Shown here in pieces: positions 10,849-31,401 of a DNA stretch of 32,000 nucleotides. The notes under the pieces are model-generated. The model saw nothing but the letters and a program-made list of their open reading frames with translations. It did not search any database and had not been told where the DNA came from. Position numbers and translations under genes: made by a program. The DNA lies in the NCBI RefSeq assembly GCF_000341395.1, contig NC_020304.1, positions 630,001-662,000 on the forward strand. Reading direction: 5' to 3'. The DNA is from Desulfocapsa sulfexigens DSM 10523 (GTDB lineage Bacteria; Desulfobacterota; Desulfobulbia; Desulfobulbales; Desulfocapsaceae). How positions within the stretch are numbered: position 1 is the stretch's first letter; every line of letters begins with the position of its first letter.

Positions 10849-10850
10849 AC

Positions 10851-13646: not shown

Positions 13647-13791
13647 CTCTTTTTGTCGGTAACGTGGATTTTACCACTATGTGTCGAATCGCCATTTTCA
13701 TTATTTCATCCAAGCCGCTCCAGTATTCACAACAGAGAATAGTCTCTTTCTACGCGACGAACTGTATGAATCTCAGTATACAATAAAAACC

Positions 13792-14697
13792 ATGAACAAA
13801 TTTATCATTGCAGGAATAGGTGAACTTCTTTGGGATGTTTTAGAGGAGTCCGAGGAACTGGGTGGCGCACCTGTCAATTTTTCTTATCATGCAAATAGCT
13901 TGGGTGCAAAGGGCTACGCCATCTCGACCGTGGGGGATGACAGGCGTGGAAAAGCAGCCTTGGCAGTACTGGAAAAACGAAAGATGTCGACAAGGTACAT
14001 TACCGTTCGTAAAGGAGCTGTTACCGGATATGTGCTTGCCAATGTGGATGACAAAGGTGTCGCATCGTATTCTTTTCCTGATGACGTGGCCTGGGATCAC
14101 CTAACGTTGGCTGAACCGACCCTGTCCCTGGCAAAAGAGGTGGATGCCATCTGTTTCGGCAGTCTTGGACAACGTTCCCCCAAGGCGCGCCTGGCAATTG
14201 TTTCATTTTTACAGGCTACCCGACCTGATACCCTTAGAATTTTTGACATCAATCTGAGACAGCATTTCTACACCACTGAAATAATACAGAATTCTCTAAA
14301 ACTAGCGAATGTTCTAAAATTAAACAACGAAGAACTCGAGGTGCTTGGAGTCATAAACGACATCAAAGGTGATGAACGTTCTCTCCTGAAAAAACTGGTA
14401 GAGAAATATAACCTGCAGTTAGCGGTCCTCACCCGCGGTGGGAAGGGGAGCCTTTTAGTATCCCCTGCTGAAATATCCAGTCATCCTGGGTGCCCCACCA
14501 ATATCGTGGACACCATAGGTGCCGGCGACTCCTTCACTGCTGCAACTGCTCTTGGCTTATTAAGAGGATACCCCCTGTCAACGATCAACGATCACGCAAA
14601 CAGAGTTGCAGCATTTGTCTGTTCCCAAAAAGGGGCTATGCCGTTGTTACCAGTGGACCTGCGGGAAAACATATCCAAGACTGTACAATTAAGTTGA
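13792..14697 (+). CDS. Fructokinase / PfkB-family sugar kinase
   Basis: I trimmed the track ORF (GTG at 13681) to the ATG at 13792, giving MNKFIIAGIGELLWDVL. The PfkB signatures GGAPVNF and TIGAGDSFTAA (catalytic Asp) are present. The position after sps-spp-ams fits a fructokinase role. Confidence 0.8.
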   Translation: MNKFIIAGIGELLWDVLEESEELGGAPVNFSYHANSLGAKGYAISTVGDDRRGKAALAVLEKRKMSTRYITVRKGAVTGYVLANVDDKGVASYSFPDDVAWDHLTLAEPTLSLAKEVDAICFGSLGQRSPKARLAIVSFLQATRPDTLRIFDINLRQHFYTTEIIQNSLKLANVLKLNNEELEVLGVINDIKGDERSLLKKLVEKYNLQLAVLTRGGKGSLLVSPAEISSHPGCPTNIVDTIGAGDSFTAATALGLLRGYPLSTINDHANRVAAFVCSQKGAMPLLPVDLRENISKTVQLS

Positions 14698-16486: not shown

Positions 16487-18481
16487 ATGCTCTCTCTTTT
16501 TAAATCTATTCGCGGTAACGTCTTTGCTTACCTGGTTCTCCTGGTCTCAATATATTCCTTTTCCAATTATTTCATTATCAACCTGATTGTTTCACCAAGT
16601 CATATAGCGGTGGAACGTCAATTGGCCCAAGAGGAGATGGAGCGTTTTACCGAAGCTCTACTGCGAGAAGGAGAAGCACTGGGAGTTCTCGCCCATGACT
16701 GGTCGGCATGGGATGACACCTACGAGTTTGTGCAAAGCAGATATCAGGAATATATCACCTCAAATCTTCCCAACACCACCTTCACAAATGGAGGGCTGAA
16801 TCTCCTCCATTTCTTTCGCCCCGATGGCTCTCTTGTGTGGAGCAAACTTCTCGACCTTGAAACTGAAGAAGAAATATCACTCACCGAATTCCCTTCAACC
16901 GGACTACCAGGCGATCATCCTTTATTGCACCATCCTCGCCCAGACAGTGCCATCAATGGATTCGTCAAAACAGAACTCGGCCCGATGCTTGTTTCCTCTC
17001 ACCCCATCATCACCAGCGAAAATACCGGGCCAATTGCAGGAACACTGATCTTTGGCCGCCTCCTCACGGAACGGCTGATGACAAAACTCAGGAAACAAAC
17101 CAAGGTTCGATGTCGCCTCATCAACCTCAGTGATCCCAATGAACTGGCAACTCTCCCTATTAATATCTCATCACTTGGGCCGGACACTCCTTATGGCTAT
17201 CATATCACCGCAAACAAAATAATTATTTTCAGTACATTTTCTGATTATCAGGGTACCCCAGAATGGCTCCTGGAAGTACACGCCGATCGTCTGATCACTT
17301 CGCAGACCAGTGAACTAATGCGCTTTGTCGTGTTTTCTAACATCGGTATCGGCCTTGTCATCATCATCCTGTTCCTTCTCCTCTACCGTTACCAGCAGAG
17401 GCTTGCAACTTCCACATTTCGAGATGTAATCAACCAGTTTTTCCAAGATAAAACTCAAGGGAGGCAAAAAAAACCGATCCTCGATACTTTTAGCACTGAC
17501 GAATTTTCCGAACTCGGACAGGACCTGCGTTTAATGATCGCCAGTTTTGAACAAACAGACAAAGACCAGAAAAACATCATCAACAGACATAGCATCTCGC
17601 TGCGACAACTGAATAACAAACTGGTTGACGAGATTAAGGAACGTCTGCAGATTGAAAAAGACCTCCATGCAATCCAAAAAAATCTTGAAAAACAGGTAAA
17701 ACAAAGAACCTTTGAACTCCTGGAAACAAATAGTGTCCTGCAGAGGGAGATTGAAAGAAGGAAGGGGAAAGAGAAGGAACTGATAAAACATCGAAAGCGC
17801 CTTCGTTCCCTTTCATCGGAACTCATGGAGATGGAAGACAGGGAGCGACGTCAACTCGCAACTGACCTTCATGACCAGATAGGCCAGTCCCTCTCTGCTG
17901 TCAAAATGTACGCGGATGCTCTTATTGCATCTGCATCGCATAAAAGCAGCAAAGAAAAACTTGAACTGATCGCAGATATTGTCGCTGAAACAATTCAGGA
18001 TGTCCGCACCCTCACCTTCGAATTAAGCCCACCCATTTTATATGAGATCGGTCTCCATGCTGCCCTTGACTGGCTTGCAGAAGAATTCCTCCAGAAATAT
18101 GGTCTTATAATCACCTCCACCTGCGATGAATGTCCGAAATGTACAACTCCTGCCTTTCTGGCCCTCATTTTTCGGACAATTCGGGAATTGCTGACAAATG
18201 TTGTCAGACACGCCAATGCAGAGAAAGCTGAGGTCGAAGTGCGATGTACAGGTAAGGGGGTACGGATTACCGTAAAGGATGATGGTTGCGGTATGGTAAA
18301 AGAACAGCTAAATAACGAAGACTCCCCGAACACTGGCTTTGGCCTTTTCAGTATCCGGGAAAGGATAAACAATATCGGCGGTACGGTGGAAATTAATTCC
18401 ACAAAAGATGTCGGAACAGAAATAATTCTCACAATTCCAATCAAAGAGGCCTGCGCTGAATCCGGCAGGACAGAGCAATGA
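16487..18481 (+). CDS. Sensor histidine kinase: periplasmic CHASE4-like domain, TM helix, coiled coil, HisKA_3 and HATPase_c
   Basis: 664 aa. The N-terminal TM is followed by LAHDWSAWDDTYEFV, which is CHASE4-like. A second TM (VVFSNIGIGLVIIILFLLLY) and a K/E-rich coiled coil follow. The H-box is DLHDQIGQSLSAVK (NarX/DegS-type HisKA_3), the N-box is ELLTNVVRHANA and the G-box is DDGCGM...GFGLFSIRER. Confidence 0.9.
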   Translation: MLSLFKSIRGNVFAYLVLLVSIYSFSNYFIINLIVSPSHIAVERQLAQEEMERFTEALLREGEALGVLAHDWSAWDDTYEFVQSRYQEYITSNLPNTTFTNGGLNLLHFFRPDGSLVWSKLLDLETEEEISLTEFPSTGLPGDHPLLHHPRPDSAINGFVKTELGPMLVSSHPIITSENTGPIAGTLIFGRLLTERLMTKLRKQTKVRCRLINLSDPNELATLPINISSLGPDTPYGYHITANKIIIFSTFSDYQGTPEWLLEVHADRLITSQTSELMRFVVFSNIGIGLVIIILFLLLYRYQQRLATSTFRDVINQFFQDKTQGRQKKPILDTFSTDEFSELGQDLRLMIASFEQTDKDQKNIINRHSISLRQLNNKLVDEIKERLQIEKDLHAIQKNLEKQVKQRTFELLETNSVLQREIERRKGKEKELIKHRKRLRSLSSELMEMEDRERRQLATDLHDQIGQSLSAVKMYADALIASASHKSSKEKLELIADIVAETIQDVRTLTFELSPPILYEIGLHAALDWLAEEFLQKYGLIITSTCDECPKCTTPAFLALIFRTIRELLTNVVRHANAEKAEVEVRCTGKGVRITVKDDGCGMVKEQLNNEDSPNTGFGLFSIRERINNIGGTVEINSTKDVGTEIILTIPIKEACAESGRTEQ

Positions 18482-19119
18482 CAATAAAAATCATTGTGGT
18501 CGACGACCACAAAATAGTCCGAGACGGACTCTGTTCACTTATTGAAGGACTTTCCGGATACACTATAGTAGGCAGAGCAGAAAATGGAAGACAGGCCATC
18601 GAGGTAGCACGCCGGGAAAAACCCGATATCGTCATTATGGATGTGAGCATGCCCGAGATGAACGGCATCGATGCAACAAGTTCTATCATGGAGGAAAGAC
18701 CTTCCTGTAAAATCATTGTCCTCTCCATGCACTCTGACAAACGCTTTATTACCGGTGCTCTCCAGGCCGGAGCTTCTGGATTTCTTCTTAAGGAATGTGC
18801 ATTCCAGGAACTCAACCAGGCACTGGATGCCGTCCGCAGCGGACAAACCTACCTTAGTCCTAAAATTGCTGGTACTGTTGTCCACGATTACCGAAGGCGA
18901 CTGCTCTCTGAAGATAAAGAGAAAGCCCTCACCACAAAAGAACGTGAAGTACTGCAGCTCATAGCTGAAGGACGATCAACCAAAGAAATAGCCGACCGTC
19001 TCTTTGTCAGTATCAAGGCTATTGAAGGAAGACGAAGACGGCTCATGGAAAAACTGCAGATCACGACAATGGCAGGTCTTGTCAAATATGCCATTCGTGA
19101 AGGGCTCACTGAACTCTAA
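18478..19119 (+). CDS. Response regulator, NarL/FixJ (LuxR-type HTH) family
   Basis: 213 aa. The REC domain has VVDDH and DIVIMDVSMPEMNG. The C-terminal LuxR HTH reads LTTKEREVLQLIAEGRSTKEIADRLFVSIKAIEGRRRRLMEKL. The start overlaps the kinase stop by 4 nt (ATGA). Confidence 0.95.
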   Translation: MTIKIIVVDDHKIVRDGLCSLIEGLSGYTIVGRAENGRQAIEVARREKPDIVIMDVSMPEMNGIDATSSIMEERPSCKIIVLSMHSDKRFITGALQAGASGFLLKECAFQELNQALDAVRSGQTYLSPKIAGTVVHDYRRRLLSEDKEKALTTKEREVLQLIAEGRSTKEIADRLFVSIKAIEGRRRRLMEKLQITTMAGLVKYAIREGLTEL

Positions 19120-19427
19120 TCCCAGGAATTTTTTTCACGGAGTTACAGAGCTAAAAGCCTTTATTTCCCATCTCTCTCACCACCGTCTCTATCAATCCCC
19201 TCCATTCTCCTCCTTTTGGCAAGGGCTCCCCTACCAGTTACTCTCCCCTTCCTGCATTATCTTTTTAACATTCCGCTTAAATGCACAATAAGGTTTTTCG
19301 AAGCCTCAATGTAGGGAAACCCCTCTTTCCAACCATCCTACAGAGTGATACCATCGGACAATTGTAATAAAACCGCTGTTTCATATCGTAACCCTCTAAT
19401 TAAAGAGAGAATCAGAGCTGAAGAGTA

Positions 19428-20348
19428 ATGCAGACAATATTTTTCATCCTCTTATTTTTCCTTACAGGGAACACAGCAGTGCTGGCAGAGTCTCTACAGC
19501 CAAAGGAACCTCTCTTTATAAATCCGAATGTGACGACTGAAACCAATATTCATTTCGATAGTAATTACTGTACCGAATGTCACCTGCAGAAACCATCCAA
19601 GGGGGACTCCGTACAGCTGAGATTCGACAACTATACCACGGCCTGCAGATGTCATGGGTACACTCCTGACACATACACCCATCCTGTGGACATAGTGCTT
19701 TCTGCAGAAAAAAAGGCCACTATTCCGGCAGAATTCCCTCTTACAAATGACAAAATCACCTGCGACACCTGCCATAACATGGCACTGCAATGTGAACCAA
19801 AGTACGAGTTGCGACTTCACAACAAGGCATTTTTACGAACAAACTCCTCCCTGGGCCGAACATTTCTCTGCTTTCAGTGCCATGAGGAAGAGCAATACAA
19901 AATGTTTGACCCCCACAAACAACTGGATGCGTCAGGGGCTATAAATGAAGAATCGTGCCTTTACTGTCATGCAAGCAAACCAGATGAACAGCAGGCAACT
20001 TTCAATTCACAGAACAACGGAGAAGACAGCATCCATCTTGTCGGCAACCTGGAGATACTTTGTCTGCGTTGCCACAACGACAAGGCCGGCAACCACCCCC
20101 TGAATAGAAATCATCTGGTCAAACCATCAGAAAAAATCATTTCACGAATGCACTGGTCGGAAAGAAATCTCTGGATCGTGCTGCCCCTGAACAACGAGGG
20201 AAAAATCACCTGTATCACCTGCCACAACCCACACGAACACGGAGTCATTCCCACAGACAAGGCAGCATCTGCCGGAGCAAGCGAAAAAGGCAGACTGAGA
20301 AAGGCATGGGGAGGAGGAAGTATTTGTGTGGTATGTCACAACATCTAA
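19428..20348 (+). CDS. Periplasmic multihaem c-type cytochrome with 7 CXXCH motifs and one degenerate ACRCH site
   Basis: 306 aa with a signal peptide ending AVLA-ES. The CXXCH motifs are CTECH, CDTCH, CFQCH, CLYCH, CLRCH, CITCH and CVVCH. ACRCH lies at nt 19641-19655. The HPVDI and NHPL distal-ligand-like motifs are shared with the 18-haem paralogue. Confidence 0.9.
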   Translation: MQTIFFILLFFLTGNTAVLAESLQPKEPLFINPNVTTETNIHFDSNYCTECHLQKPSKGDSVQLRFDNYTTACRCHGYTPDTYTHPVDIVLSAEKKATIPAEFPLTNDKITCDTCHNMALQCEPKYELRLHNKAFLRTNSSLGRTFLCFQCHEEEQYKMFDPHKQLDASGAINEESCLYCHASKPDEQQATFNSQNNGEDSIHLVGNLEILCLRCHNDKAGNHPLNRNHLVKPSEKIISRMHWSERNLWIVLPLNNEGKITCITCHNPHEHGVIPTDKAASAGASEKGRLRKAWGGGSICVVCHNI

Positions 20349-20361
20349 CAAAGGAGAGAAG

Positions 20362-21426
20362 ATGAGATTGAAGTCACGTTCCCGGCCACTTTGGCCCCTT
20401 AGTATCCTCACACTGCTTGTTATTTACTTCCTGCCCGCAGGCGCGCAGGGATCAGATGTCGGTAACTGCCTGCTCTGTCATAAATACCCGGGACTAAGCA
20501 GGGTTGATGAAAATGCAGAAATGCGGCTTCTCTATGTAAATGAAGAAATTTTCAACCAAAGTGTCCACGCAAAGGTAAAATGTGAGGGATGCCACACTGA
20601 TATCACCAAGATCCCCCATGAACCGGTCAAACCTGTGGACTGTCTGGTACTCTGTCATATCATTGAACCGGCAGAGGAGCAGAAGTTTTCTCACAAGAGT
20701 GTTGAAAAATTCCTGGCCGACAGTGTTCACGGCAAGATGGACGAACATGGCAAAGAAAAGCCTTTCAGTGAAGACATGCCGACCTGTAAGGACTGCCATG
20801 ATAATCCGATGTTCAGACCCCTTGCATTTGTCAAAAAGGTGAGACCCGGTATTGCTGAAGATGCCCTGGGACGCTGCCGAGTCTGTCACAAAAAAGAAGA
20901 ATTCATCTACAGATTTTACAATCACGTCACCACCAGGCTGCACAAGAGCAGAAGTCCGCTCAATATTGCAGAGTCCTGTGCCAGATGCCACGATGACCCG
21001 GAACTGGTGGCCCGACACAACCTCTCCACCATGGCCAGAGGTTCCTATGGGCAGACTTTTCACGGCAAGGCGGCCAACCTCCTGGACGAATCGGTTCCAG
21101 ACTGCCTGGACTGCCACGTACCCAAGGGACAATCCGTACACCAGATGCACGGCAATGATGACATTCGTGCCACCACCCATCCGGAGAACAGAGGACAAAT
21201 TTGTGGATCCGTGGACTGTCACCCAGGTGCCTCCCAACAGTTTGCAAATTATCAGGTCCATGCGGAATTTAACAAGGAACAGAGCCCGGTGATCTACTGG
21301 TTCACCACCTTCTTCATCATTCTCACCGGTGCTACCCTGCTTCCTTTGATGGGAATACTGTTTCTTGATCTGCTTCGCCGCCTGTTTCCCAATGCATCTT
21401 TTAGACGGAGGAAAGAGAAACCATGA
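20362..21426 (+). CDS. Membrane-anchored multihaem c-type cytochrome (6 CXXCH plus CX3CH and CX4CH, C-terminal TM helix). CbcA-like by architecture.
   Basis: I trimmed the track ORF to the ATG at 20362, which follows AAGGAGAG. The signal peptide is MRLKSRSRPLWPLSILTLLVIYFLPAGAQG. The motifs are CLLCH, CEGCH, CKDCH, CRVCH, CARCH and CLDCH, plus CLVLCH (20641-20658) and CGSVDCH (21202-21222). The C-terminal hydrophobic helix is VIYWFTTFFIILTGATLLPLMGILFLDLL, followed by RRLF...RRRKEK. Confidence 0.9.
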   Translation: MRLKSRSRPLWPLSILTLLVIYFLPAGAQGSDVGNCLLCHKYPGLSRVDENAEMRLLYVNEEIFNQSVHAKVKCEGCHTDITKIPHEPVKPVDCLVLCHIIEPAEEQKFSHKSVEKFLADSVHGKMDEHGKEKPFSEDMPTCKDCHDNPMFRPLAFVKKVRPGIAEDALGRCRVCHKKEEFIYRFYNHVTTRLHKSRSPLNIAESCARCHDDPELVARHNLSTMARGSYGQTFHGKAANLLDESVPDCLDCHVPKGQSVHQMHGNDDIRATTHPENRGQICGSVDCHPGASQQFANYQVHAEFNKEQSPVIYWFTTFFIILTGATLLPLMGILFLDLLRRLFPNASFRRRKEKP

Positions 21427-22325
21427 AAAAATATCCAGCAATAAAGTTCAAGGACGGAAAAAAATACTTTTTCCGATTTGATCTGGACACAAGAATCCAG
21501 CATATCATCCTGGCGGCAACAGTCATTATACTGGTTCTGACAGGGATGCCTCTCAAGTTCAGTGATAGTAGCTGGGCTCCTTATCTCTACTCTTTTTTCG
21601 GTGGAAGCAAGATGGCTCCGGTAATACACAAATGGACCGGTGCCATCATGCTTCTCCTCTTTGTTTACCATGTTGTGCGAGTAGTAGGCGGCATCATAAC
21701 GAATCATATCATGCCCCTTAAAAGAGAAGGGAAAATGAGTATAGGCAGGGTCACCATGGTACTGGTCAGACTCCCCATGATTCCAAACCTGAAAGATCTG
21801 AAAGATATCATAGGACTGATGAAATACCTGCTCTATTTCACCAATGAGCACCCGCATGGCGATGAATGGACCTGGAAGGAAAAGTTTGATTACTGGGCAC
21901 CATTCTGGGGTATGTTTGTCATCGGTATCACCGGCCTCATCATCTGGAACAAGGTACTGGCAACCCAGGTCATACCAGGTGAATTTATCAACCTCTGCCT
22001 GATAGCTCACAGTGACGAGGCATTACTGGCGGCACTCTTTCTCTTTATCTGGCACTGGTATAACGTCCATTTTTCCACTTCTGTCTTCCCGATGGGTACA
22101 GTCTTTCTCACCGGTTATCTTCCTGAAGAGCTGATGGTTGAAGAACACTACGAGCATTACGTAAGAGTGATGACCAGGGAAGGATTGGAATCTGAGATCA
22201 AACCGCCCCACGGTGGCGGCAATAATCCGACAATCTGCGGGGAACCACAGGATGTCACCTCGGATACTCCACCAACCACCGCACCAGCCAATGATCCCAT
22301 GCAGCAGGGAGGAGTCAACTCATGA
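21423..22325 (+). CDS. Integral-membrane b-type cytochrome (FdnI/HydC/PhsC-like cytochrome b561 fold). Candidate quinol-interacting subunit.
   Basis: 300 aa with at least four TM helices: IQHIILAATVIILVLTGMPL, HKWTGAIMLLLFVYHVV, YWAPFWGMFVIGITGLIIW and CLIAHSDEALLAALFLFIWHWYNVHF. Histidines sit in TM1, TM2 and TM4 (two in TM4), as expected for two b haems. There are ATGA overlaps with both neighbouring genes. Confidence 0.75.
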   Translation: MKKYPAIKFKDGKKYFFRFDLDTRIQHIILAATVIILVLTGMPLKFSDSSWAPYLYSFFGGSKMAPVIHKWTGAIMLLLFVYHVVRVVGGIITNHIMPLKREGKMSIGRVTMVLVRLPMIPNLKDLKDIIGLMKYLLYFTNEHPHGDEWTWKEKFDYWAPFWGMFVIGITGLIIWNKVLATQVIPGEFINLCLIAHSDEALLAALFLFIWHWYNVHFSTSVFPMGTVFLTGYLPEELMVEEHYEHYVRVMTREGLESEIKPPHGGGNNPTICGEPQDVTSDTPPTTAPANDPMQQGGVNS

Positions 22326-23242
22326 AATGCTTTTTTACCAAGCTCTATGTTCTTGCTTTTATGGGACTGGTCGCCTTTTTCGGTGTGCTCATCTGGAATT
22401 TGACATTTGCCCATCTTATCCATGAATACCATGCAAGACAAGGAGATGTAACAATTACTCCCAGCGGAGAGAATGACAAAAAAGATGTCGGGAATCAAAC
22501 ATTTGACAAGATGATTCTTGAAAGTGAGGATCGGGTCAAACACTATCTCGGCTACCGGGTACTGGAAGAGCAGAGAATAGAAGGACATTTTCACCATATC
22601 GGCTTCGATGTCGGACCCGACAACAGATCCTACTGCAGATCCTGCCATGGCGACATGCCTCACGACTCAGTCAAAGATATTCGGGCATTTTTGAATATGC
22701 ATGCCTTTTTTGTGGCCTGCCAGACCTGCCATGTCAAGCTGACTGATGATGAAAGAACAAACGTCTACAAATGGTATGACCGAAAAACCGGAGAAATTGT
22801 TGAAAGCCCGGTCAATGGAGCTCCACCGGGGACCTACAATGCAAAAATTGTCCCCTTCATTCGTGAAGACGGCAAACTTGTCCGCATCGACAGCGAGGAA
22901 AAAATCCAGTTCGCCACTGACTACAAGACAAATGAAAAGGCGTTGAGCGAAGGCCAGAAATCCAAGGCAAAGAAGATTATCCACCAGATTATCAGCAAGC
23001 TGCCTGTAAGCTGTGAAGAGTGCCACACCAAGAACAATCCTACTCTTCCCCTTGCCGATCTTGGCTACCCCAAGGCCCGGATCGATTCCATCACCAGTAC
23101 AGAGGTGGTGGGAATGATAAAGAACTATACGGAGTTCCATATGCCAAAGATGTTAAACCCAGGCGAAGTATCGCCTGCTGCGCCACAACAGACCGAACTG
23201 CAGCCGCAACAGATGGCGGAACCACAACCAACACAGCATTGA
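22322..23242 (+). CDS. N-terminally membrane-anchored trihaem c-type cytochrome
   Basis: 306 aa. The N-terminal TM is LYVLAFMGLVAFFGVLIWNLTF, with no obvious cleavage site. It has three CXXCH motifs (CRSCH, CQTCH, CEECH) and a Pro/Gln-rich C-terminal tail, PAAPQQTELQPQQMAEPQPTQH. Confidence 0.85.
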   Translation: MKCFFTKLYVLAFMGLVAFFGVLIWNLTFAHLIHEYHARQGDVTITPSGENDKKDVGNQTFDKMILESEDRVKHYLGYRVLEEQRIEGHFHHIGFDVGPDNRSYCRSCHGDMPHDSVKDIRAFLNMHAFFVACQTCHVKLTDDERTNVYKWYDRKTGEIVESPVNGAPPGTYNAKIVPFIREDGKLVRIDSEEKIQFATDYKTNEKALSEGQKSKAKKIIHQIISKLPVSCEECHTKNNPTLPLADLGYPKARIDSITSTEVVGMIKNYTEFHMPKMLNPGEVSPAAPQQTELQPQQMAEPQPTQH

Positions 23243-23254
23243 GAATGCGACCAA

Positions 23255-24217
23255 GTGAACAGATATACCTCACCTGAGTGGTATAAAAGAAGAAGGAGAA
23301 TAGTCACCATTTCTATTCTCCTTTTGCTTACGGCCTGGACATCCGCCGCCCATGCACTGGAGCTGACCATGGCAACACACCTCTTTGATATAGAGGAGGA
23401 ATTCAACCAGCCAAGTGATGTAGCCGTTGCCAGGAACGGTACCATCTATGTGGTTGATGGGGTGAATGGCAAAATCAAGGCATTTTCACCTTCCGGAAAA
23501 CCACTCTTCACTATCGGTCGACCAGGAACCGATCCCGGCGAATTTGCCTTTCCCCTTGGTATTGGACTGGACGAATCTGGCAGAGTCTATGTTGCCGACT
23601 CCAGAAATAGCCGGATCCAGATATTTTCTGCCACAGGCGATTTCATCTCTGAAATTCCGGTTCCAGCCCTGAACGGAGAAAAATCCGACCCAACCGATGT
23701 GGTCGCGGACAGTTCCGGAAAATGGTGTTTTGTGGCAGACAACAATAATCATCGGATTCTCCAATTCGATATTGCCACAAAAAAGCTCATCAACAGCTAT
23801 GGAAAACCCGGGGCTGAAAAATGGGAATTCCGCTATCCCTTTCTCATGCACCTCCATCGGGATAAAGACCTGTACATTGTTGATGTCATCAATACCAGAG
23901 TACAGGTTCTGAATACAGAGGGGAAGTTCGTCACCTTTGTCGGGGGCTGGGGTGTTGAAAAGGGCCATTTTTTCAGACCAAAAGGGATTACTGTGGATAA
24001 AAATGGACTCTCCTATGTCAGTGACAGCTATATGGGAGTAGTTCAACTCTTCAATATTACCGGCACCTTTCATTCAGTCCTTGGTGACCCGACAACGGGT
24101 AAGGTGAAGAAGTTCGTAACACCTGTTGGGCTCTTTATTGACGATGCCATGCACCTCTATGTTGTGGAGATGCTTCCAGGCCGGATCAGTGTTTTCAGCC
24201 TGGAAAATATGCCATGA
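23255..24217 (+). CDS. NHL-repeat beta-propeller protein, secreted/periplasmic (NHL-1)
   Basis: 320 aa from a GTG start with no clear RBS, so the start is uncertain. The signal-like N-terminus is KRRRRIVTISILLLLTAWTSAAHA. NHL blades recur: PSDVAVARNGTIYVVDGVNGKIKAF, PLGIGLDESGRVYVADSRNSRIQIF, PTDVVADSSGKWCFVADNNNHRILQF, LYIVDVINTRVQVL, PKGITVDKNGLSYVSDSYMGVVQLF and PVGLFIDDAMHLYVVEMLPGRISVF. Confidence 0.85.
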   Translation: MNRYTSPEWYKRRRRIVTISILLLLTAWTSAAHALELTMATHLFDIEEEFNQPSDVAVARNGTIYVVDGVNGKIKAFSPSGKPLFTIGRPGTDPGEFAFPLGIGLDESGRVYVADSRNSRIQIFSATGDFISEIPVPALNGEKSDPTDVVADSSGKWCFVADNNNHRILQFDIATKKLINSYGKPGAEKWEFRYPFLMHLHRDKDLYIVDVINTRVQVLNTEGKFVTFVGGWGVEKGHFFRPKGITVDKNGLSYVSDSYMGVVQLFNITGTFHSVLGDPTTGKVKKFVTPVGLFIDDAMHLYVVEMLPGRISVFSLENMP

Positions 24218-26436
24218 TCAGATCCCGTGCCTGCATCCTGATCCTGCTTTTCAGCAGCATGCTTTTTTACTCTCTCCCATGCCTTGCCAATCAGGCACCT
24301 CGCAACCCGAATTCGGCCAAGGAATGTGCGATCTGTCACTATCGATGGATAGATACTTTTTTTATTGATGGCAGGGGCACTGACCTTGTGCCCTATCAGG
24401 AGACTAAGGTGGTCGCAGAGCCCGAAATCTGTTTTTCCTGCCATGACGGCAGTGTGGCAGACTCAAGGGGAAAGGTGTACAACGACCATCGCCACCCCAT
24501 CAACAAACCACCACCACCAGGGATGGAAATCCCAGCCATCTTTCCCCTGGATGAGCATGGAAACATGCAGTGCTTTACCTGCCACACTGCCCATGGAGTG
24601 TCCAGTGAAATGGGGATTGAACGGGCAGTTTTTGTCCGCACATCCAACGATAATTCTTCCATGTGCATGATGTGTCACAAGGGCAAGGATGGTGGGCCTG
24701 CCATGGGCAACCATCCCATTGGCACAACAGAACGACCAATACCTGACAACCTTCTCAATCTCGGGAGTATCGAAGGGTCTGTCACGAATCAGATCATCTG
24801 CCAGACCTGCCACAATGTTCATGGCTCACCCTTTGACAATTTTCTCGTTGAAAACAACAGAGATTCAGGCCAGCTCTGTCTGGACTGCCACCAGGAAAAG
24901 GGCGGTCTGCTAAACAGCGGGCATGATTTACGGCGCACGGCAGCGGAGGCCAAGAACAGCAAGGGACAGCCCCCGGTACAGTCAGGGATATGCGGTGCCT
25001 GTCATCTGGTGCATGGAGCAGAAAAGACAGTACTCTGGGCCCGACCACTTCCTGCTAAGAGTAAAAACAGAACCCAGGATCTGTGCACTAGCTGTCACAG
25101 CAAAACAGGGCTGGCCTCTGAAAAACTCATCAAGGGATATTCTCATCCCGTTAACATTTCTCTTCGGGACAAGGGGATGCGACCTGACCTGCCTGCCTTT
25201 GATCTCACTGGCCGGCGCGTTCAGCAAGAGGCTAAGGACGCACTGCTCACCTGCCCCACCTGCCACGATCCACACCAGGCAGGAACTGCCAGGCAGGCCA
25301 CAATGACCCCGCCCCGTTCAAGTTTTCTTCGGGTAAAGGATGGAAAAGCTGAAAGCCTGTGTAAGCAGTGCCACAGCAAACAGGCATCTGTTGTGGGAAG
25401 CGATCATGACCTGCGAAAGACAGGTGCCACAACAAAAAATACTCAGGGGCAACTGCCTGGCGAGTCAGGACCATGCGGCGTCTGTCATCTTGTTCACGGA
25501 GCACAGACAAAAAACTTATGGGCTCGCAAGGTCTCGAGCAAAAGTGCCTATCCGGCACAGGATCTCTGTCTGACCTGTCACAACAGCAAGGGTGTCGCCA
25601 ATACAAAAGTCATCGCTGACCACTCCCATCCCGTTGACATCAATCCTGAAAAACGAAACATCAGTACTACTCTGCCGCTTTACGACAGTCATGGAGAAAG
25701 AAAATCCAATGGCGTTATAGCCTGTCTGACCTGCCATAATCCACACCAATGGCATCCTAGAAAGCCGACCTCCCACGGAAACAATCATGTTGAGGGAAAC
25801 GCAAAAAACAGCTTTCTCCGTCTTGCCGCCGCACCAGAACCTGCACTGTGCAGCAATTGTCACCCTGAAAAAGCGTATGTGGAAAAGAGTGACCACGACC
25901 TCAACATCACAGCACCCACTGCAACAAATACCATGGGGCAGATCCCGGAAGAATCCGGGGTCTGCGGTGTCTGTCACATCATCCATAATGGAAAAAACAC
26001 GGTACGACTCTGGGCTCGTAACTATGGAGCAGGTAAAGGCATTATGGATAGAATGTGCAACAGTTGTCATACAGATGGGGGATCCGGCAGTAACAAGGTA
26101 CCTGTGGTTTCCACCCATCCGGAAAAACAACTCATCGCTAATCCGGGAAGAAATATCAAAGGAAAGGCAAATTATTTTCCACTTTTTGACGACGAAACGG
26201 CATCACCTATTACCATCGGCGATATTTCCTGTGCCTCATGCCATGATGTGCACCAATGGGATCCCAAAAAGAAACAAAAGGGGAATGGGGAAAATCCTGA
26301 GGGGAAAGCTACCAATAGTTTTTTACGCATGCAGACCTACAACATGATCTGCAAAGACTGTCATGGACTTGATTCCCTGTACCGATTCAAATATTACCAT
26401 GACAGTAAGAAAAGAACACCCATTTCCACCCCATAA
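24214..26436 (+). CDS. Large periplasmic or extracellular multihaem c-type cytochrome with 18 CXXCH motifs
   Basis: 740 aa with the signal peptide MIRSRACILILLFSSMLFYSLPCLA. The 18 motifs start at residues 38, 73, 120, 151, 196, 222, 260, 291, 347, 383, 421, 452, 504, 546, 584, 615, 673 and 713. The start overlaps the NHL-1 stop (ATGA). Confidence 0.95.
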   Translation: MIRSRACILILLFSSMLFYSLPCLANQAPRNPNSAKECAICHYRWIDTFFIDGRGTDLVPYQETKVVAEPEICFSCHDGSVADSRGKVYNDHRHPINKPPPPGMEIPAIFPLDEHGNMQCFTCHTAHGVSSEMGIERAVFVRTSNDNSSMCMMCHKGKDGGPAMGNHPIGTTERPIPDNLLNLGSIEGSVTNQIICQTCHNVHGSPFDNFLVENNRDSGQLCLDCHQEKGGLLNSGHDLRRTAAEAKNSKGQPPVQSGICGACHLVHGAEKTVLWARPLPAKSKNRTQDLCTSCHSKTGLASEKLIKGYSHPVNISLRDKGMRPDLPAFDLTGRRVQQEAKDALLTCPTCHDPHQAGTARQATMTPPRSSFLRVKDGKAESLCKQCHSKQASVVGSDHDLRKTGATTKNTQGQLPGESGPCGVCHLVHGAQTKNLWARKVSSKSAYPAQDLCLTCHNSKGVANTKVIADHSHPVDINPEKRNISTTLPLYDSHGERKSNGVIACLTCHNPHQWHPRKPTSHGNNHVEGNAKNSFLRLAAAPEPALCSNCHPEKAYVEKSDHDLNITAPTATNTMGQIPEESGVCGVCHIIHNGKNTVRLWARNYGAGKGIMDRMCNSCHTDGGSGSNKVPVVSTHPEKQLIANPGRNIKGKANYFPLFDDETASPITIGDISCASCHDVHQWDPKKKQKGNGENPEGKATNSFLRMQTYNMICKDCHGLDSLYRFKYYHDSKKRTPISTP
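24877..26349 (+). repeat. Three tandem intragenic repeats, each about 160 aa and four haems, inside the 18-haem cytochrome
   Basis: The units are aa 222-382, 383-545 and 546-712 (nt 24877-25359, 25360-25848, 25849-26349). Each follows the pattern C..CH-(x)-S.HDL-(x)-G(Q)(x)P.(E)SG.CG.CH..H(x)...LWAR-(x)-C..CH-(x)-(S/T)HP-(x)-C..CH(D/N)(P/V)HQ-(x)-NSFLR (SSFLR in unit 1). The repeats are conserved at protein level and diverged at DNA level. Confidence 0.85.
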
Positions 26437-26600
26437 AAAAGATAGGAATTGTTCACAAATAAAATCTTACAAGCTGTAATCCATTGCCAAGAAAAGGAAT
26501 AATAAGTACCACACCAGCCCTAACCGACAAACACCGAAACCATCGCAATGTCAGGCAGGACGGGCAATCCAGTCAATTTAAAGAGGGATTTGGAACGTAA

Positions 26601-26626
26601 AAAAGAGGGGAACCCCTCTTTTTTCT
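26601..26626 (+). terminator. Rho-independent terminator ending the first cytochrome transcription unit
   Basis: The sequence AAAAGAGGGG-AA-CCCCTCTTTTTT has a GC-rich stem (GAGGGG/CCCCTC) followed by a T-run. It lies about 165 nt after the 18-haem stop codon. An A-tract upstream makes it look symmetric, so it may act in both directions. Confidence 0.8.
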
Positions 26627-26743
26627 CTCACAATCTAGAATATACTACAAAGTATGCACAGACCAATGGAAAGTATCGTTTTCCCAGGCTGCATAGACCT
26701 AAGGGGACAAAAGAAAAATGAATGATCAACGAGAGGATGAATA

Positions 26744-27376
26744 ATGAAAAGACTAGTAATTGGCGTTCTGGCTTTAATTGGCAGCACCGGGATATGCTCA
26801 ACAGCATTTGGAGTAATAACAGGATCGGATCATGACTTCAGTGGGTCAAACTGGAGTAGTGGACAAATTTGTCTGCCCTGTCACGCACCTCATAACGGAA
26901 CAGTTATCGCTGATGCTCCCCTATGGAATCATGATGTCTCAGAGGCCAGCTATACCCTGTACTCCAGTGCCACCCTCGATGCCGATGATCTTTCACAGCC
27001 CGCCGGCGTCTCAAAGCTCTGCCTTTCCTGCCATGACGGAACCGTTGCTATCGATGCCTTTACTGGCCATGACGGTACTATTTTTATAGGAACAATCGGA
27101 ACAGGCAGTGGAGATCTTGGCTCAGCCCTGAATAATGACCATCCCGTATCTTTCACTTATGACAGTGCCCTTGCTACCGCAGACGGTGGTCTTTGGGATC
27201 CAAGCTCAAAAAGTTCAGGAATAACAGAGGGTGGTACAATTGATAGCGACATGCTTTTTGCCGGACGGATGGAATGTGCATCCTGTCATGATGTTCATAA
27301 TAAATATGAGAACACGAGTCTTCTCTTAATAGATAACGATGGCTCTAACCTCTGCCTCACCTGCCACAACAAGTAA
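26744..27376 (+). CDS. Small secreted tetrahaem c-type cytochrome
   Basis: 210 aa with the signal peptide MKRLVIGVLALIGSTGICSTAFG. It has 4 CXXCH motifs (CLPCH, CLSCH, CASCH, CLTCH) and six further His residues (SDHDF, APHNG, LWNHD, TGHDG, NDHPV, DVHNK). The spacers are Gly/Ser/Thr/Asp-rich and look loop-like. GAGAGGA lies 6-7 nt upstream of the ATG. Confidence 0.9.
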   Translation: MKRLVIGVLALIGSTGICSTAFGVITGSDHDFSGSNWSSGQICLPCHAPHNGTVIADAPLWNHDVSEASYTLYSSATLDADDLSQPAGVSKLCLSCHDGTVAIDAFTGHDGTIFIGTIGTGSGDLGSALNNDHPVSFTYDSALATADGGLWDPSSKSSGITEGGTIDSDMLFAGRMECASCHDVHNKYENTSLLLIDNDGSNLCLTCHNK

Positions 27377-27468
27377 CAGGACAATCCGCCATAGGCTGTC
27401 TTCCGTCTGCCCATGCACGTCACGTGTGTGGGTGGACTTTGTTGTTTTCACGGTACCACTTAAAAACC

Positions 27469-28548
27469 ATGCAAAAACCATATCGTTTCTCAGACACACA
27501 GCTGTTATTTCCCCTCCTCTGTCTGCTACTCCTGAGCAGTTGTGCCAGGCCGGTAGAAGAAGCAGCACTCATTTTCTACCCACCACCACCAGAACGCCCG
27601 AGACTTCAGTTTCTCACAGCCATCTCCTCGGAAACAGACCTGGCAGTCAAAAGAGATGCCTTTGACAGCTTTCTCTTTGGTCCCGACCTGTCCTTTTCCT
27701 CCATCGGTCGCCCCTACGACATAGCCTCAGACAGGGGAAGCATCTACCTTATTGACCGTCAGTCCAACAAGATACTCACCATTGATCTGGTGAACAAGGA
27801 CTTCACCGAACTACGAGCCACCGGACGGGGGGCACTCCGTTCCCCGTCAGGTATCTGGGTCACCTCGGATGGCTTCAAGTACATTGCTGACATAAAACGC
27901 CAGCAGATTGTCACCTTCAACAGCAGTAATGAGTTCATCCGTGCCTACGGTAATAAAGAGCTGTTTAATAAACCGGTTGATGTTGCTGTTTATAACAACA
28001 ACATCTATGTCTGCGACATGGTCAAAAGTCAGATCATTGTCCTCGACAGAGATTCGGGAGAAGTCGTTATGACCGTTGGGGAGAGTGGATCCGAAGAGGG
28101 GCAGCTGCATAAGCCGACACATGTAACAGTGGACAAACATGGAAATGTTTTTGTCAATGACGCCTTTAATTTTAGAGTCCAGCAATTTGACAGTTCTGGA
28201 GTATTTGTGAAAACTTTTGGCTTCCACGGAGACCGCATGGGAGGAATGGCCAGAAGCAAAGGGCTGGATGTAGATCAGGAAGGAAATTTGTATGTGGCGG
28301 ATGCGGCCTTTGAATATGTACAGATTTTCAACAAAGACGGTCAACTGCTCCTTTTCTTCGGTGGCCCTGGAAATGCTCCTGGAAATATGTACCTTCCGGC
28401 CGGGGTCCATATTGATTATGAGAACATCCAATTCTTCAATACATTTGCAGACCCGAATTTCAAACTGAAATACCTCCTCTATGTGTGCAATATGAGTGGT
28501 TCAAATAAGGTCAATGTCTATGGATATGGAGACTGGAGCGGTGAATAA
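27469..28548 (+). CDS. NHL-repeat beta-propeller lipoprotein (NHL-2)
   Basis: I trimmed the track ORF (GTG at 27424) to the ATG at 27469, giving MQKPYRFSDTQLLFPLLCLLLLSSC with the lipobox LSSC. A PPPPERP linker follows. NHL blades include PYDIASDRGSIYLIDRQSNKILTI, PSGIWVTSDGFKYIADIKRQQIVTF, PVDVAVYNNNIYVCDMVKSQIIVL, PTHVTVDKHGNVFVNDAFNFRVQQF and GLDVDQEGNLYVADAAFEYVQIF. Confidence 0.85.
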   Translation: MQKPYRFSDTQLLFPLLCLLLLSSCARPVEEAALIFYPPPPERPRLQFLTAISSETDLAVKRDAFDSFLFGPDLSFSSIGRPYDIASDRGSIYLIDRQSNKILTIDLVNKDFTELRATGRGALRSPSGIWVTSDGFKYIADIKRQQIVTFNSSNEFIRAYGNKELFNKPVDVAVYNNNIYVCDMVKSQIIVLDRDSGEVVMTVGESGSEEGQLHKPTHVTVDKHGNVFVNDAFNFRVQQFDSSGVFVKTFGFHGDRMGGMARSKGLDVDQEGNLYVADAAFEYVQIFNKDGQLLLFFGGPGNAPGNMYLPAGVHIDYENIQFFNTFADPNFKLKYLLYVCNMSGSNKVNVYGYGDWSGE

Positions 28549-28598: not shown

Positions 28599-29294
28599 AT
28601 GCACAAAATTTCCATCCACATAGTAATGATGTTTTTTCTAACAGCTTCCCTCAGCGGATGTGAAGCGAAAAAACAGCATGAAGTGCTTACCTTTTTCTTC
28701 ACCGGGGTTCCCCCCTTGGAGGAAACAGCTGCTGTAACAAGTGATCAGGAACTTCAGGATGTACGGGAGACAACGCCGGGGCCAAAAACTGTACAGGTTC
28801 AAACCCTCTATTCCCACCCGGTATGGGCCGCCGGCGTCTGCGACCCATGTCATGGAAGTACGGGAACATTCAGCACTCCCGGGGTCCAGAAACAACCTCA
28901 AACAGTCTTCAAAACAGGTGGCGGTATGCCTGGTGAACTCACCCTGCCGAAAACGAAACTCTGCATACAATGCCACAGAGACAAAACACCTTTACGGGCA
29001 CTTACAGAACGACTCTGGCTACATAACACAACGGCAAAAGGGGATTGCATGGCATGTCACGATCCCCATCAGAGCAAGAATAAAAACACCTTGCGAAAGC
29101 CACCGGTAAAAATCTGTCTTTCATGCCATGAAAATGGGACTTTTATGGCAACACCAGCCCACCAGACAGGAGAAGACTGCCTTTCCTGCCATACTCCACA
29201 CATGGGCCTCAATAAAAATTTACTCAAAAACGAATATCAGGAGCAGAAAACGCCAGCGCTCCAAATCCCAGAGACAATGGTACAGGGTCGGTAA
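28599..29294 (+). CDS. Pentahaem c-type cytochrome lipoprotein
   Basis: 231 aa with a canonical lipobox (LTASLSGC). It has 5 CXXCH motifs: CDPCH, CIQCH, CMACH, CLSCH and CLSCH. Confidence 0.9.
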   Translation: MHKISIHIVMMFFLTASLSGCEAKKQHEVLTFFFTGVPPLEETAAVTSDQELQDVRETTPGPKTVQVQTLYSHPVWAAGVCDPCHGSTGTFSTPGVQKQPQTVFKTGGGMPGELTLPKTKLCIQCHRDKTPLRALTERLWLHNTTAKGDCMACHDPHQSKNKNTLRKPPVKICLSCHENGTFMATPAHQTGEDCLSCHTPHMGLNKNLLKNEYQEQKTPALQIPETMVQGR

Positions 29295-29334: not shown

Positions 29335-31401
29335 ATGCACTCTTCCTATAACCTCTTCCCAGTGACCCTGTTTGTCCTGCTCCCGCTGTTTTTTCTTCTC
29401 ATGGGGCCAGTACAAATCCAGGCTGCTGAAGAAACGGAAACGGGTGAAGTTCAGGCTCCGACAACCCCTCCTGTCTCATCACCCATTCCCAGGCCACGAA
29501 TGACGGCAGTGCCCAATGGTCTTCTTGGACAGAACTATTTTATTAAACGGCCGGGTATGGGAGCAGGACTCACCTATGAATACAAAGATGAGTCGCGGAC
29601 AACCAGTGGAACCACTGTCAAAGACAGCTATCACAGATTTAAAGAACGGGTGAGACTGCAAACGGATGGATGGCTATATCATCCAGCGCTTATGCAATAT
29701 TCCCTGATGATTGAACCGGAGTGGATCCAGTCAAAAGAAGTTAACACTTCAGGAGAAACTGGCAGAGTCAACTCCTTTTCACCAGACTATGCAATGACCG
29801 CGACCTTCCTTCAGCAAAAGCCCTACACCTTTAACTTTTTTGCCAGCCGACGAGAATCTCCGGTGTGGGCAGCATTTGCCGGTGACACTGAAACTCTTGT
29901 CGACACATACGGCACAAATATACGACTCAAATATAAAATTTTACCAACCGTATTTGGGTACTCTCACGTCAAAACTGATCAGCAGGGTTACTATAGTTCA
30001 GAAAACATACGCGACAATTTCCATTTCACCTCGCGGCATCAAAATAACAGAAGCAGCACATCTTTCAGTTCCACCTACAGTGACGACAGGAGAAGCACCG
30101 AAGACAGTGATACTAAAATCACTACGTTCAACAACAGTCTCACGAACAACTATCAAATAACCAGTGACAATACAATCAAACTCAACTCATTCCTGACGTA
30201 CAGAACCCAGGATAGTGATGTGTTTGATACAGCGAACCTCCGACTGCGAGAACAGCTGAACTGGCGGCATCGTGCAAATCTGCGATCAAACTATTCATTT
30301 ACCCACACCCTGCAGGAAACCGACAACACACAGTCCGAAAGAACAGCACTCGATGCCCGCTTAACACATCTTTTATATGAAAACCTCACCACAAACGTCG
30401 GAAGCAAAGGCAGTCTCTATGATTACTCAGGGGGACGGGAGAATGCGTTCAATACTTTTCTTAATTTCACATACACCCGTCCCATCTCCTGGGGTACCCT
30501 GAATCTAAACAGCGGTTGGGACTACCTCTATACAGACCGCAGCGGATTCACCAGTTCAATTGCTCAGGTAACCAATGAACCACACACCCTGAGCCCTGCC
30601 ACCGAAACCTACCTGGCCAACTATGGCGTACGAACTGAGTCCATCGTTGTAACCAATACTCCCGGAACAATCATCTATATTGAAAACATAGACTACAGCG
30701 TCGACACCATCGGTGATTACACCAGAATAAATTTTCTCTCCTTTGGCTCCATAGCAGCCGGACAATCTGTCATGGTCAGCTACAGCTACACCCGAGATGC
30801 AGAGTATGATGACGGTATAGCCACCGAGAACTATGGTATGAACATACATTTGTTTAATAGCTTGGATTTTTCCTACAATTACCTGCACACCAAACAACAC
30901 ATTCTTTCTGGCCTGGAACCAAAGAACAAAATTGATGATACCATCCACAGATTCAAAATTCGTCATTACACAAACTGGGCTGATACCACCTTCCACTATG
31001 AAGACAACGACCGTGTTTCCAACCGTCCCTTTACCAGATGGGAACTCCAGGAGACATTAAGCTACAGGCCTGCATGGCAAGTACACTTTTCACTCAAGGG
31101 ATATTTTGGCCAAACCTCCTATACAGATGATAATGAAACAAAAGACTTTTATGGAGGAGTCACTACCTTTGACTGGCTCCTCAACCGCTGGTGCAGGTTT
31201 CGGTTGGAAGGGTATTATGACAATATCAATGGGGATGTGGAACAGACAGAAAATATCGGTGTCAAGGCAGGACTGGAATTCCGCTACCGTATCTGGACAG
31301 CACGACTAACCTATGAACTCACTGACCAGAACAATATAATAACGGATTATGAGCGAACGAAACAACTCCTTCGTTTTGAAATTATCCGCATCATGTGGTG
31401 A
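29335..31401 (+). CDS. Large outer-membrane beta-barrel protein. Candidate porin partner of the adjacent lipoprotein cytochrome.
   Basis: 688 aa. The signal peptide ends IQA-AEE and is followed by a Pro-rich linker (APTTPPVSSPIPRP). The rest is Y/T/N/S/R-rich with alternating hydrophobic and polar stretches throughout. There is only one Cys. The C-terminus, LLRFEIIRIMW, ends in an aromatic residue as in typical OMP C-terminal signatures. Confidence 0.75.
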   Translation: MHSSYNLFPVTLFVLLPLFFLLMGPVQIQAAEETETGEVQAPTTPPVSSPIPRPRMTAVPNGLLGQNYFIKRPGMGAGLTYEYKDESRTTSGTTVKDSYHRFKERVRLQTDGWLYHPALMQYSLMIEPEWIQSKEVNTSGETGRVNSFSPDYAMTATFLQQKPYTFNFFASRRESPVWAAFAGDTETLVDTYGTNIRLKYKILPTVFGYSHVKTDQQGYYSSENIRDNFHFTSRHQNNRSSTSFSSTYSDDRRSTEDSDTKITTFNNSLTNNYQITSDNTIKLNSFLTYRTQDSDVFDTANLRLREQLNWRHRANLRSNYSFTHTLQETDNTQSERTALDARLTHLLYENLTTNVGSKGSLYDYSGGRENAFNTFLNFTYTRPISWGTLNLNSGWDYLYTDRSGFTSSIAQVTNEPHTLSPATETYLANYGVRTESIVVTNTPGTIIYIENIDYSVDTIGDYTRINFLSFGSIAAGQSVMVSYSYTRDAEYDDGIATENYGMNIHLFNSLDFSYNYLHTKQHILSGLEPKNKIDDTIHRFKIRHYTNWADTTFHYEDNDRVSNRPFTRWELQETLSYRPAWQVHFSLKGYFGQTSYTDDNETKDFYGGVTTFDWLLNRWCRFRLEGYYDNINGDVEQTENIGVKAGLEFRYRIWTARLTYELTDQNNIITDYERTKQLLRFEIIRIMW

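Follow-up and report, generated by a model that had tools for sequence, protein, structure and literature searches.

The OmcE nanowire of Geobacter sulfurreducens (7TFS; PMC12954529) and the OmcE bundle of Desulfuromonas soudanensis WTL (9YUQ; bioRxiv 10.1101/2025.10.22.684050) are the closest characterised relatives of the system described here. The haems of OmcE are coordinated by four CXXCH motifs and four further histidines, and the interface between subunits holds a haem that needs a histidine from the neighbouring subunit (bioRxiv 10.1101/2025.10.22.684050). The filaments of OmcS and of archaea (PcECN, 8E5F; AvECN, 8E5G) are described in the literature as insulated haem stacks of the same type, and OmcS also uses a histidine of a neighbouring subunit. 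Homologues of OmcE with porin and propeller neighbours have already been reported from several phyla, and according to Petersen et al. (2025) the 'nanowire-type' homologues need a large barrel and a beta-propeller lipoprotein nearby, with a minimal cluster of two multihaem cytochromes, two propeller lipoproteins, OmcE and the barrel. The uet clusters, also already described, are found in 'Ca. Tenderia electrophaga' and some Gallionella, are proposed to act in electron uptake, and contain genes for a tetrahaem cytochrome (UetA; ALP54622.1 in Tenderia), a barrel (UetC), NHL-repeat proteins (UetH and UetI), an undecahaem cytochrome (UetJ) and NrfG-like tetratricopeptide-repeat (TPR) proteins; UetA is predicted to be extracellular, and its possible polymerisation was also raised by the authors. 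Here we describe a locus of Desulfocapsa sulfexigens DSM 10523 that shares features with both, in a stretch of 32,000 nt (contig NC_020304.1, positions 630,001 to 662,000 of the forward strand; this whole stretch is referred to as the window and is numbered from its first nucleotide). Its central gene, at 26744..27376, encodes an OmcE-like tetrahaem cytochrome of 210 aa and is a candidate for a nanowire subunit gene; this gene and all other features given below lie on the + strand.

A tetrahaem cytochrome of the OmcE family

The gene follows a 307-nt spacer (26437-26743; 39.7% GC, against 46.8% across the whole window), upstream of which is a 740-aa open reading frame (24214-26436) with 18 CXXCH motifs. 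A ribosome-binding site, GAGAGGA (26731..26737), lies 6 nt 5' of the ATG at 26744, and its AGAGGA is kept in the nearest genome found, a metagenome-assembled genome (MAG) of an uncultured Desulfocapsa (locus L001) whose tetrahaem protein is 75% identical. Two further loci, L081 and L082, code for an identical 210-aa protein, and L081 covers 20.6 kb, with about 10 kb on each side. The CXXCH motifs of the protein start at residues 43, 93, 178 and 204, and six of its ten histidines (30, 47, 50, 63, 97, 109, 133, 182, 185 and 208) fall outside them. Residues 1-23 form a Sec-type signal peptide (MKR followed by a hydrophobic core) with a predicted cleavage site between AFG and VITGS, there is no canonical lipobox at the N-terminus, and the mature protein has 187 aa and a pI of 4.3. 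An earlier, sequence-only reading of this DNA had described the spacer, the 18-haem gene upstream, the ribosome-binding site, the length of the product, its four CXXCH motifs and six further histidines, the missing lipobox and a loop sequence, and all of these were recovered in our analysis.

A phmmer search of PDB sequences with the 210-aa protein returns full-length matches to 7TFS chain A (E 2.4e-24, query residues 6-210 against chain residues 16-232) and 9YUQ chain N (E 3.5e-20), and no other noteworthy match. The identities are 35% to 7TFS and 32% to 9YUQ, and these two share 39% with each other. In an alignment of 117 sequences, composed of close relatives of the protein and the true OmcE clade, exactly eight histidines are invariant (H30, 47, 50, 97, 133, 182, 185 and 208); four belong to the CXXCH motifs and four are distal, including the N-terminal 'HD' histidine, H30. 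The same eight are present in the G. sulfurreducens and D. soudanensis OmcE proteins, the latter having no others, and the remaining invariant columns are the eight haem cysteines, W61, Y73, P134 and L194. The likeness to OmcE extends to size, to a mostly coil structure, and to the arrangement of four CXXCH motifs with four distal histidines, one of them within an N-terminal HD(L/F)S arm. On these comparisons the 210-aa protein is a member of the OmcE sequence family.

The predicted fold points in the same direction. An AlphaFold2 model built from the 117-sequence alignment (predicted local distance difference test score, pLDDT, 83.4; predicted template-modelling score, pTM, 0.75) has a sole Foldseek match in the PDB, to 7TFS, spanning all 202 modelled residues (E 7.7e-8, probability 1.00, TM 0.55/0.57, root-mean-square deviation 5.7 A); the TM score is moderate because the model contains no haems. 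An earlier run, from an alignment of 62 sequences of which none was less than 55% identical, reached a pLDDT of only 49.7 and gave no Foldseek match, and the gain in model quality came from the greater diversity of the 117 sequences. The sequence-only reading had proposed structural comparison with OmcE, OmcS and the archaeal tetrahaem filaments together, and of these it is OmcE that is matched; OmcS and the archaeal filaments belong to a different protein family, with no match by phmmer or Foldseek, both taken to E values up to 10.

We consider it probable that the 210-aa protein is the major polymerising subunit of an OmcE-type 'insulated' cytochrome nanowire. The precursor would be exported through the Sec pathway and receive four c-type haems in the periplasm, and the 187-aa holoprotein would then cross the outer membrane at a 688-aa putative barrel encoded downstream, assisted by beta-propeller lipoproteins. 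Outside, subunits would join head to tail as in OmcE, with seven of the eight conserved histidines ligating haems of their own subunit and the eighth given to the open interface haem of a neighbour; the donated residue is probably H30, which stands in an arm of the form I-x-G-S-x-H-D-F-S directly after the signal peptide. The product would be one continuous chain of bis-His haems, and electrons would reach it from an inner-membrane module of cytochrome b and multihaem proteins, by way of periplasmic and lipoprotein cytochromes.

The sequence-only reading had left the choice between such a filament subunit and a soluble shuttle undecided. The filament is favoured because of the full-length homology to OmcE, the OmcE-only match of the fold among PDB structures, the eight ligand histidines, and the cluster of accessory genes described below. 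A freely diffusing, abundant periplasmic tetrahaem shuttle of the cytochrome c3 or PpcA kind, carrying electrons from the inner-membrane module to the outer-membrane complex, would be consistent with the Sec signal peptide, the small size and the lack of an anchor, with the position of the gene between the inner-membrane cytochrome b module and the outer-membrane genes, and with an expression design that suggests abundance. However, neither c3, c7 nor NrfB profiles match the whole protein, and the fit is confined to the C-terminal 35 residues or so, where residues 174-210 match generic haem-pair motifs in Pfam. Among the individual Pfam models, Cytochrome_C7 reaches 26.7 bits without any stretch that is significant, and neither c3 nor NrfB attains its cut-off. 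Neither Pfam nor NCBIfam holds an OmcE-specific model, and all that they detect is the generic paired-CXXCH motif; scores with the NCBIfam equivalogs of NrfB and NrfH are far short of the cut-offs, and the models for the decahaem DmsE/MtrA family reach 30 bits against a cut-off of 192 (TIGR03508) and 29.5 against 325 (GSU2203). Foldseek finds the OmcE nanowire and no periplasmic cytochrome, with no c3, c7, NrfB or MtrA structure among its matches. The nearest characterised homologues are extracellular polymers, and a soluble shuttle would have no need of the strict N-terminal histidine arm or of the tight linkage to barrel and propeller-lipoprotein genes. A shuttle is therefore highly improbable.

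The sequence-only reading had also pointed to surplus histidines, as fitting either option, and this argument does not hold. Only H63 and H109 lie outside the canonical eight, and H109 is not conserved. H63 is invariant in the 62 closest relatives, but a minority of the subfamily has R, K, N, S or G there. The two solved OmcE proteins have Arg at this position, and the related domains of undecahaem proteins have Arg or Lys, with Glu or Gln in rare cases. A role for H63 as a ninth iron ligand was considered and rejected on account of this variation, and the pattern of substitution suits a position that is polar or contacts a propionate better than it suits an iron ligand. Moreover, an excess of histidines would be no evidence for polymerisation, because ligation between subunits of the OmcE type uses one of the normal eight.

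The same residue bears on a further possibility, that the protein is a cap, 'stopper' or primer for a filament made of another subunit, with H63 ligating the interface haem in cis so that the end would be added and not extended. The ideal stopper, as predicted by Petersen et al., combines an OmcE-like structure with four haems and nine histidines, and with H63 there are nine strongly conserved histidines in the subfamily. The substitutions at H63 described above, within the subfamily as well as in OmcE and the undecahaem domains, argue against such a role. A cap should also be rare, whereas the gene has the architecture of a highly expressed one, and no other short OmcE-like gene is present in the 32-kb window or on the same contig across the 20.6 kb read as L081, so that there is no source of a bulk subunit there. 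We regard a cap as very unlikely.

The accessory gene cluster and the terminator behind the candidate subunit gene

Downstream of the subunit gene are four genes in the same orientation. The first (27469..28548) encodes an NHL-repeat beta-propeller lipoprotein (lipobox LSSC), assigned to Pfam NHL and a six-bladed propeller. It is followed by a pentahaem lipoprotein (28599..29294; lipobox LSGC) with five CXXCH motifs, which matches Pfam Paired_CXXCH_1 and is NrfB-like, and then by the 688-aa putative outer-membrane beta-barrel (29335..31401). The 688-aa protein has a signal peptide, ends in FEIIRIMW, and has a composition like that of outer-membrane proteins, being rich in Thr, Ser, Asn and Tyr, with one Cys and hydrophobic runs of no more than six residues. 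It matches no Pfam or NCBIfam family, and a profile search against PDB sequences gave no match; we propose, from these sequence properties, that it is a secretion channel or anchor with a barrel fold. A second NHL beta-propeller lipoprotein gene (lipobox LHGC; Pfam NHL) starts at 31405 and runs past the end of the window at 32000. L081 and L082 show the continuation, where this gene overlaps by 4 nt a gene for a 571-aa protein with 11 CXXCH motifs (L081 14662-17468). The first ~211 residues of this undecahaem protein form a complete OmcE-like domain with all eight histidines and the signature WNR, and 3' of its gene are genes for a 13-haem protein (434 aa in L081, 460 aa in L082) and for TPR and thioredoxin-type biogenesis proteins. 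The cluster thus has the propeller lipoproteins and multihaem cytochromes of the minimal set of Petersen et al., with the 688-aa protein as the putative barrel.

This arrangement is widely distributed. A scan of GTDB species representatives returned 80 loci, whose carriers include Desulfobacterota, Bacteroidota, Ignavibacteriota, Calditrichota, Verrucomicrobiota, Planctomycetota, Gemmatimonadota, Nitrospirota, Acidobacteriota, Beta- and Gammaproteobacteria, and others. An NHL gene lies directly 3' of the short OmcE-like gene in 56 of 68 loci, a barrel homologue is found within 4.5 kb of it in 32 of 41, and a pentahaem-like lipoprotein is encoded between propeller and barrel in 31 of 41. A long protein with an OmcE-like domain occurs in the same locus as the short gene in 26 of 27 cases; its gene is directly preceded by an NHL gene in 39 of 40, and the protein itself has 11 CXXCH motifs in 44 of 47, with a median length of 570 aa. 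We also observed that 16 of 99 short homologues have a fifth CXXCH, placed in variable loops (at positions equivalent to ~147-150 or ~190 of the protein in the window), and that they are similar to OmcE-like proteins with five haems to which Petersen et al. refer. A rearranged form of the cluster is present in the cultured Desulfosediminicola flagellatus (CP050698.1, 787818-808441), where a 60%-identical short subunit stands in the order 675-aa protein without Pfam match, multihaem proteins, subunit, overlapping NHL, multihaem, cytochrome b, NHL, and 899-aa multihaem protein; this species could serve for experiments.

Between the subunit gene and the first propeller gene is a strong intrinsic terminator or attenuator (27405..27448), which had been overlooked in the sequence-only reading. 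It consists of a 15-bp stem (27405-27437) with a 3-nt loop and a U-rich tail, UUUGUUGUUUU, and its folding energy of -23.9 kcal/mol (z = -4.5) makes it stronger than the hairpin in the upstream spacer. The L001 version is at -24.6 kcal/mol (z = -6.4), and two substitutions in its stem change G-U to A-U pairs, so that pairing is preserved. The true start of the propeller gene, taken from the gene calls in L081 and L082, is the ATG at 27469, which is 3' of the terminator. A mechanically chosen start for the same lipoprotein, GTG 27424, overlaps the hairpin; the protein called from ATG 27469 begins MQKPYRF and continues to the LLSSC lipobox.

The terminator is a recurrent feature of the family. 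We counted as terminator-like a site with a stem of at least 6 bp, at least 3 G-C pairs and a T-rich tail, no more than 150 nt 3' of the gene, and found one behind the short gene in 45 of 94 loci (48%), compared to 4.4% of random windows from the same loci and only 4-6% after the NHL, pentahaem, barrel or undecahaem genes. Tandem short OmcE-like genes, in two or three copies, are present in L011, L020, L029, L034, L043, L055 and others. The gene would be a stand-alone expression unit whose terminator lets only a fraction of transcripts reach the accessory genes, and with this limited read-through far more subunit would be made than assembly and anchor parts, as is the case for pilin genes. To judge from the genes themselves, this is the layout to be expected if a major structural subunit is produced in greater amounts than the machinery that assembles it, and the terminator is a stronger expression-related signal than an independent promoter. 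Major pilin and fimbrial loci are alike in having the subunit gene first, then a strong hairpin and T-tract ahead of the assembly genes, and they too often have tandem subunit paralogues. This likeness is one of expression logic only, with attenuation presumed, and there is no sequence or structural relationship. A conserved terminator 3' of the subunit gene offers a simple rule, open to testing, for separating major subunits from accessory cytochromes in clusters of this kind.

Relation to OmcE proper and to the undecahaem cytochrome

The omcE gene of G. sulfurreducens (GSU0618; L083 9424-10862) is similarly isolated, with a 577-nt upstream spacer, a sigma-54 promoter-like site, TGGCGTGCTGGTTGCA, and a perfect terminator, AAAAAGGGTGGACTCCGGTCCACCCTTTTTTT, 3' of the gene and before the gene for a 752-aa barrel. 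Both omcE genes of known structure (GSU0618 and DSOUD_2954) also stand beside genes for NHL beta-propeller, multihaem and large outer-membrane proteins. The orders differ, with subunit, NHL, pentahaem, barrel, NHL and undecahaem here, and two multihaem genes, NHL, omcE, barrel and then glycosyltransferases in Geobacter. Unlike Geobacter, there are no glycosylation genes in the 32-kb window or in the 9.9 kb downstream on L081, and no sigma-54 promoter is seen in the spacer.

Closer comparison sets the 210-aa protein apart from OmcE, and several observations weigh against its being a nanowire subunit. The signature after haem 1 is WNH in the type of protein found in the window (the 'S-type', or WNH subfamily) and WNR in OmcE. 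In a neighbour-joining tree the G. sulfurreducens and D. soudanensis OmcE proteins group with the N-domains of the undecahaem proteins, and the short window type is separate, although the internal branches are short and without bootstrap values. Cross-scores of hidden Markov models place the undecahaem N-domain in an intermediate position, with the greatest distance between the window type and true OmcE. In both analyses proven OmcE is slightly nearer to that N-domain than to the short protein. The propeller next to Geobacter omcE is best matched by the propeller paired with the undecahaem protein, not by the one adjacent to the subunit, and the Geobacter 9-haem neighbour is best matched by the 13-haem protein encoded 3' of the undecahaem gene. 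The 688-aa protein has no detectable homology to the 752-aa barrel of the Geobacter omcE cluster (hhalign probability 0.5%). By these sequence relationships the 210-aa protein is not an orthologue of proven OmcE; it belongs to a sister subfamily known from sequence only, for whose members polymerisation is something that we infer. Ligation between subunits is not readable from sequence, the promoter of the tetrahaem gene was not found in consensus scans, and a finite porin-cytochrome conduit would likewise consist of a soluble tetrahaem cytochrome, a barrel and a haem lipoprotein. In size, in its set of haems and ligands, and in expression design, the short protein is nevertheless closer to OmcE than the undecahaem protein is.

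The last of these objections leads to a different account, in which the protein does not polymerise and is part of a finite conduit at the outer membrane, docking once through an OmcE-type interface and donating H30 to a haem of its partner. The partner would be the OmcE-like N-domain of the undecahaem protein, or docking would take place inside the barrel, and 15-20 haems would then form a short wire that crosses the outer membrane or lies on it; a similar wire has been proposed for UetA and UetJ in the uet cluster of Tenderiales. The near-constant co-occurrence with an undecahaem protein that has a complete OmcE-like domain (26/27 loci) and the distinctness of the subfamily from proven OmcE both agree with this account, as does the match to the uet cluster. 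That match is one of parts, with a tetrahaem protein with signal peptide at the head, a barrel, two NHL proteins, an 11-haem protein of ~570 aa, and TPR genes; the triheme c7 proteins UetDEG, the cupredoxin UetF and the PPIase (peptidyl-prolyl isomerase) UetB are absent here from among the cluster genes, compared by domain, and unlike uet there are a pentahaem lipoprotein and an extra 18-haem and cytochrome b module. Among the best 120 matches to a gammaproteobacterial homologue, no protein is named as one of Tenderia. A terminator in about half of the loci implies an excess of the short protein over its supposed 1:1 partners, however, and tandem copies in several loci also speak against a finite conduit. 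The translational coupling of the undecahaem gene suggests 1:1 stoichiometry with a propeller, and that coupling is to its own NHL partner, not to the short gene. Furthermore, the size, haem count and ligand set of the short protein are those of a polymerising subunit. We give a finite conduit a minor but appreciable chance of being correct.

If the short protein does polymerise, the undecahaem protein may have a part in the filament, and we tentatively put forward, as a serious though doubtful possibility, that the WNH cluster is a second nanowire system related to OmcE, far commoner than OmcE proper and made of a tetrahaem subunit and an undecahaem base or adaptor. The N-terminal OmcE-like domain of the undecahaem protein would join the filament through the same His-haem interface, and the C-terminal part, with its seven haems, would connect the wire to the conduit of barrel and lipoproteins. 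Petersen et al. found no candidate for an initiator or anchor in the omcE operons of Desulfuromonadia and named priming and anchoring as an open question; the undecahaem protein is a concrete candidate for this role in cytochrome wires, and a two-part system, if true, would supply the missing 'initiator or anchor' and unify the uet electron-uptake clusters with the OmcE nanowires. The 210-aa protein as it stands is one more homologue in a known family, and routine searches are enough to find it. What may be new, as far as the sequences go, is the widespread WNH subfamily, the family-wide terminator, and the undecahaem protein with a complete OmcE-like domain. Polymerisation of the short protein would mean that a sulfur-cycling bacterium of the Desulfocapsaceae has an OmcE-type nanowire wired to its own inner-membrane module, and would extend long-range extracellular electron transfer to the Desulfocapsaceae and to the many other phyla that share the cluster.

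The upstream spacer and other genes of the window

The spacer ahead of the subunit gene contains a hairpin followed by a T-tract, AAAAAAGAGGGGAACCCCUCUUUUUU, at about 26599..26624, which is 165 nt after the stop of the 18-haem gene. Its folding energy is -15.3 kcal/mol (z = -2.8), and the hairpin and T-run are kept in L001 and L082. The terminator that the sequence-only reading placed at 26601-26626 is real as a hairpin, both by folding and by a rule-based terminator scan that positions it at 26602-26621, although another terminator scan missed it; the AT-rich stretch noted between hairpin and ribosome-binding site is also real (38.5% GC), with a length of 104 nt and not ~115 nt. The hairpin is likely the intrinsic terminator of the preceding 18-haem unit. 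An upstream terminator is found in 8 of 92 loci, so it is not enriched and is no general feature of the family.

The gene had also been described as separately promoted, and this goes beyond what the spacer contains. Consensus scans of the 307 nt gave no sigma-70 site (at least 9 of 12 matches) and no sigma-54 consensus, and because of this an independent promoter is something that we infer rather than observe. Sigma-54 sites are present upstream of homologues in 13 of 92 other loci as well as in Geobacter, and in three loci checked, from Bacteroidales, Calditrichota and Nitrospirae MAGs, the short gene is immediately preceded by a gene for an NtrC-type sigma-54 activator. Rfam gave no riboswitch or known RNA in the spacers, either across the window at gathering thresholds or in 26380-27520 at permissive E-values. 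The spacer as a whole is not unusually structured (z = -0.03), and only its hairpin is. A block of ~60 nt just 5' of the hairpin (26545-26600; AATGTCAGGCA...GGGATTTGGAAC) is kept in L001, the remaining spacer having diverged; it neither matches Rfam nor folds significantly, and could be a 3' untranslated-region element or a regulatory site.

The genes further to the left include the components that would feed the wire. A soluble NHL beta-propeller, identified with Pfam (23255..24217), and the 18-haem cytochrome of 740 aa (24214..26436) form a pair that is an upstream add-on of some lineages only; it is upstream of the subunit gene only in L001, and is found elsewhere in L042, L052 and L064. 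To its left, at 16487..23242, are genes for a CHASE4 histidine kinase, a LuxR-type response regulator, a 7-haem and a 6-haem cytochrome, a cytochrome b (Ni_hydr_CYTB) and a 3-haem cytochrome, as seen from Pfam assignments and haem counts. The order of this module is the same in L001, and it is probably an inner-membrane quinol-oxidising feed module together with its regulator.

Two other groups of genes were seen in the left part of the window. A sucrose cluster (8698-14697) encodes a sucrose-phosphate synthase/phosphatase fusion, a second sucrose-phosphate phosphatase, an amylosucrase-like alpha-amylase and a PfkB kinase, and may serve in the formation of a compatible solute. Upstream of it, at 6551-7546, is a gene for an outer-membrane protease of the omptin family.

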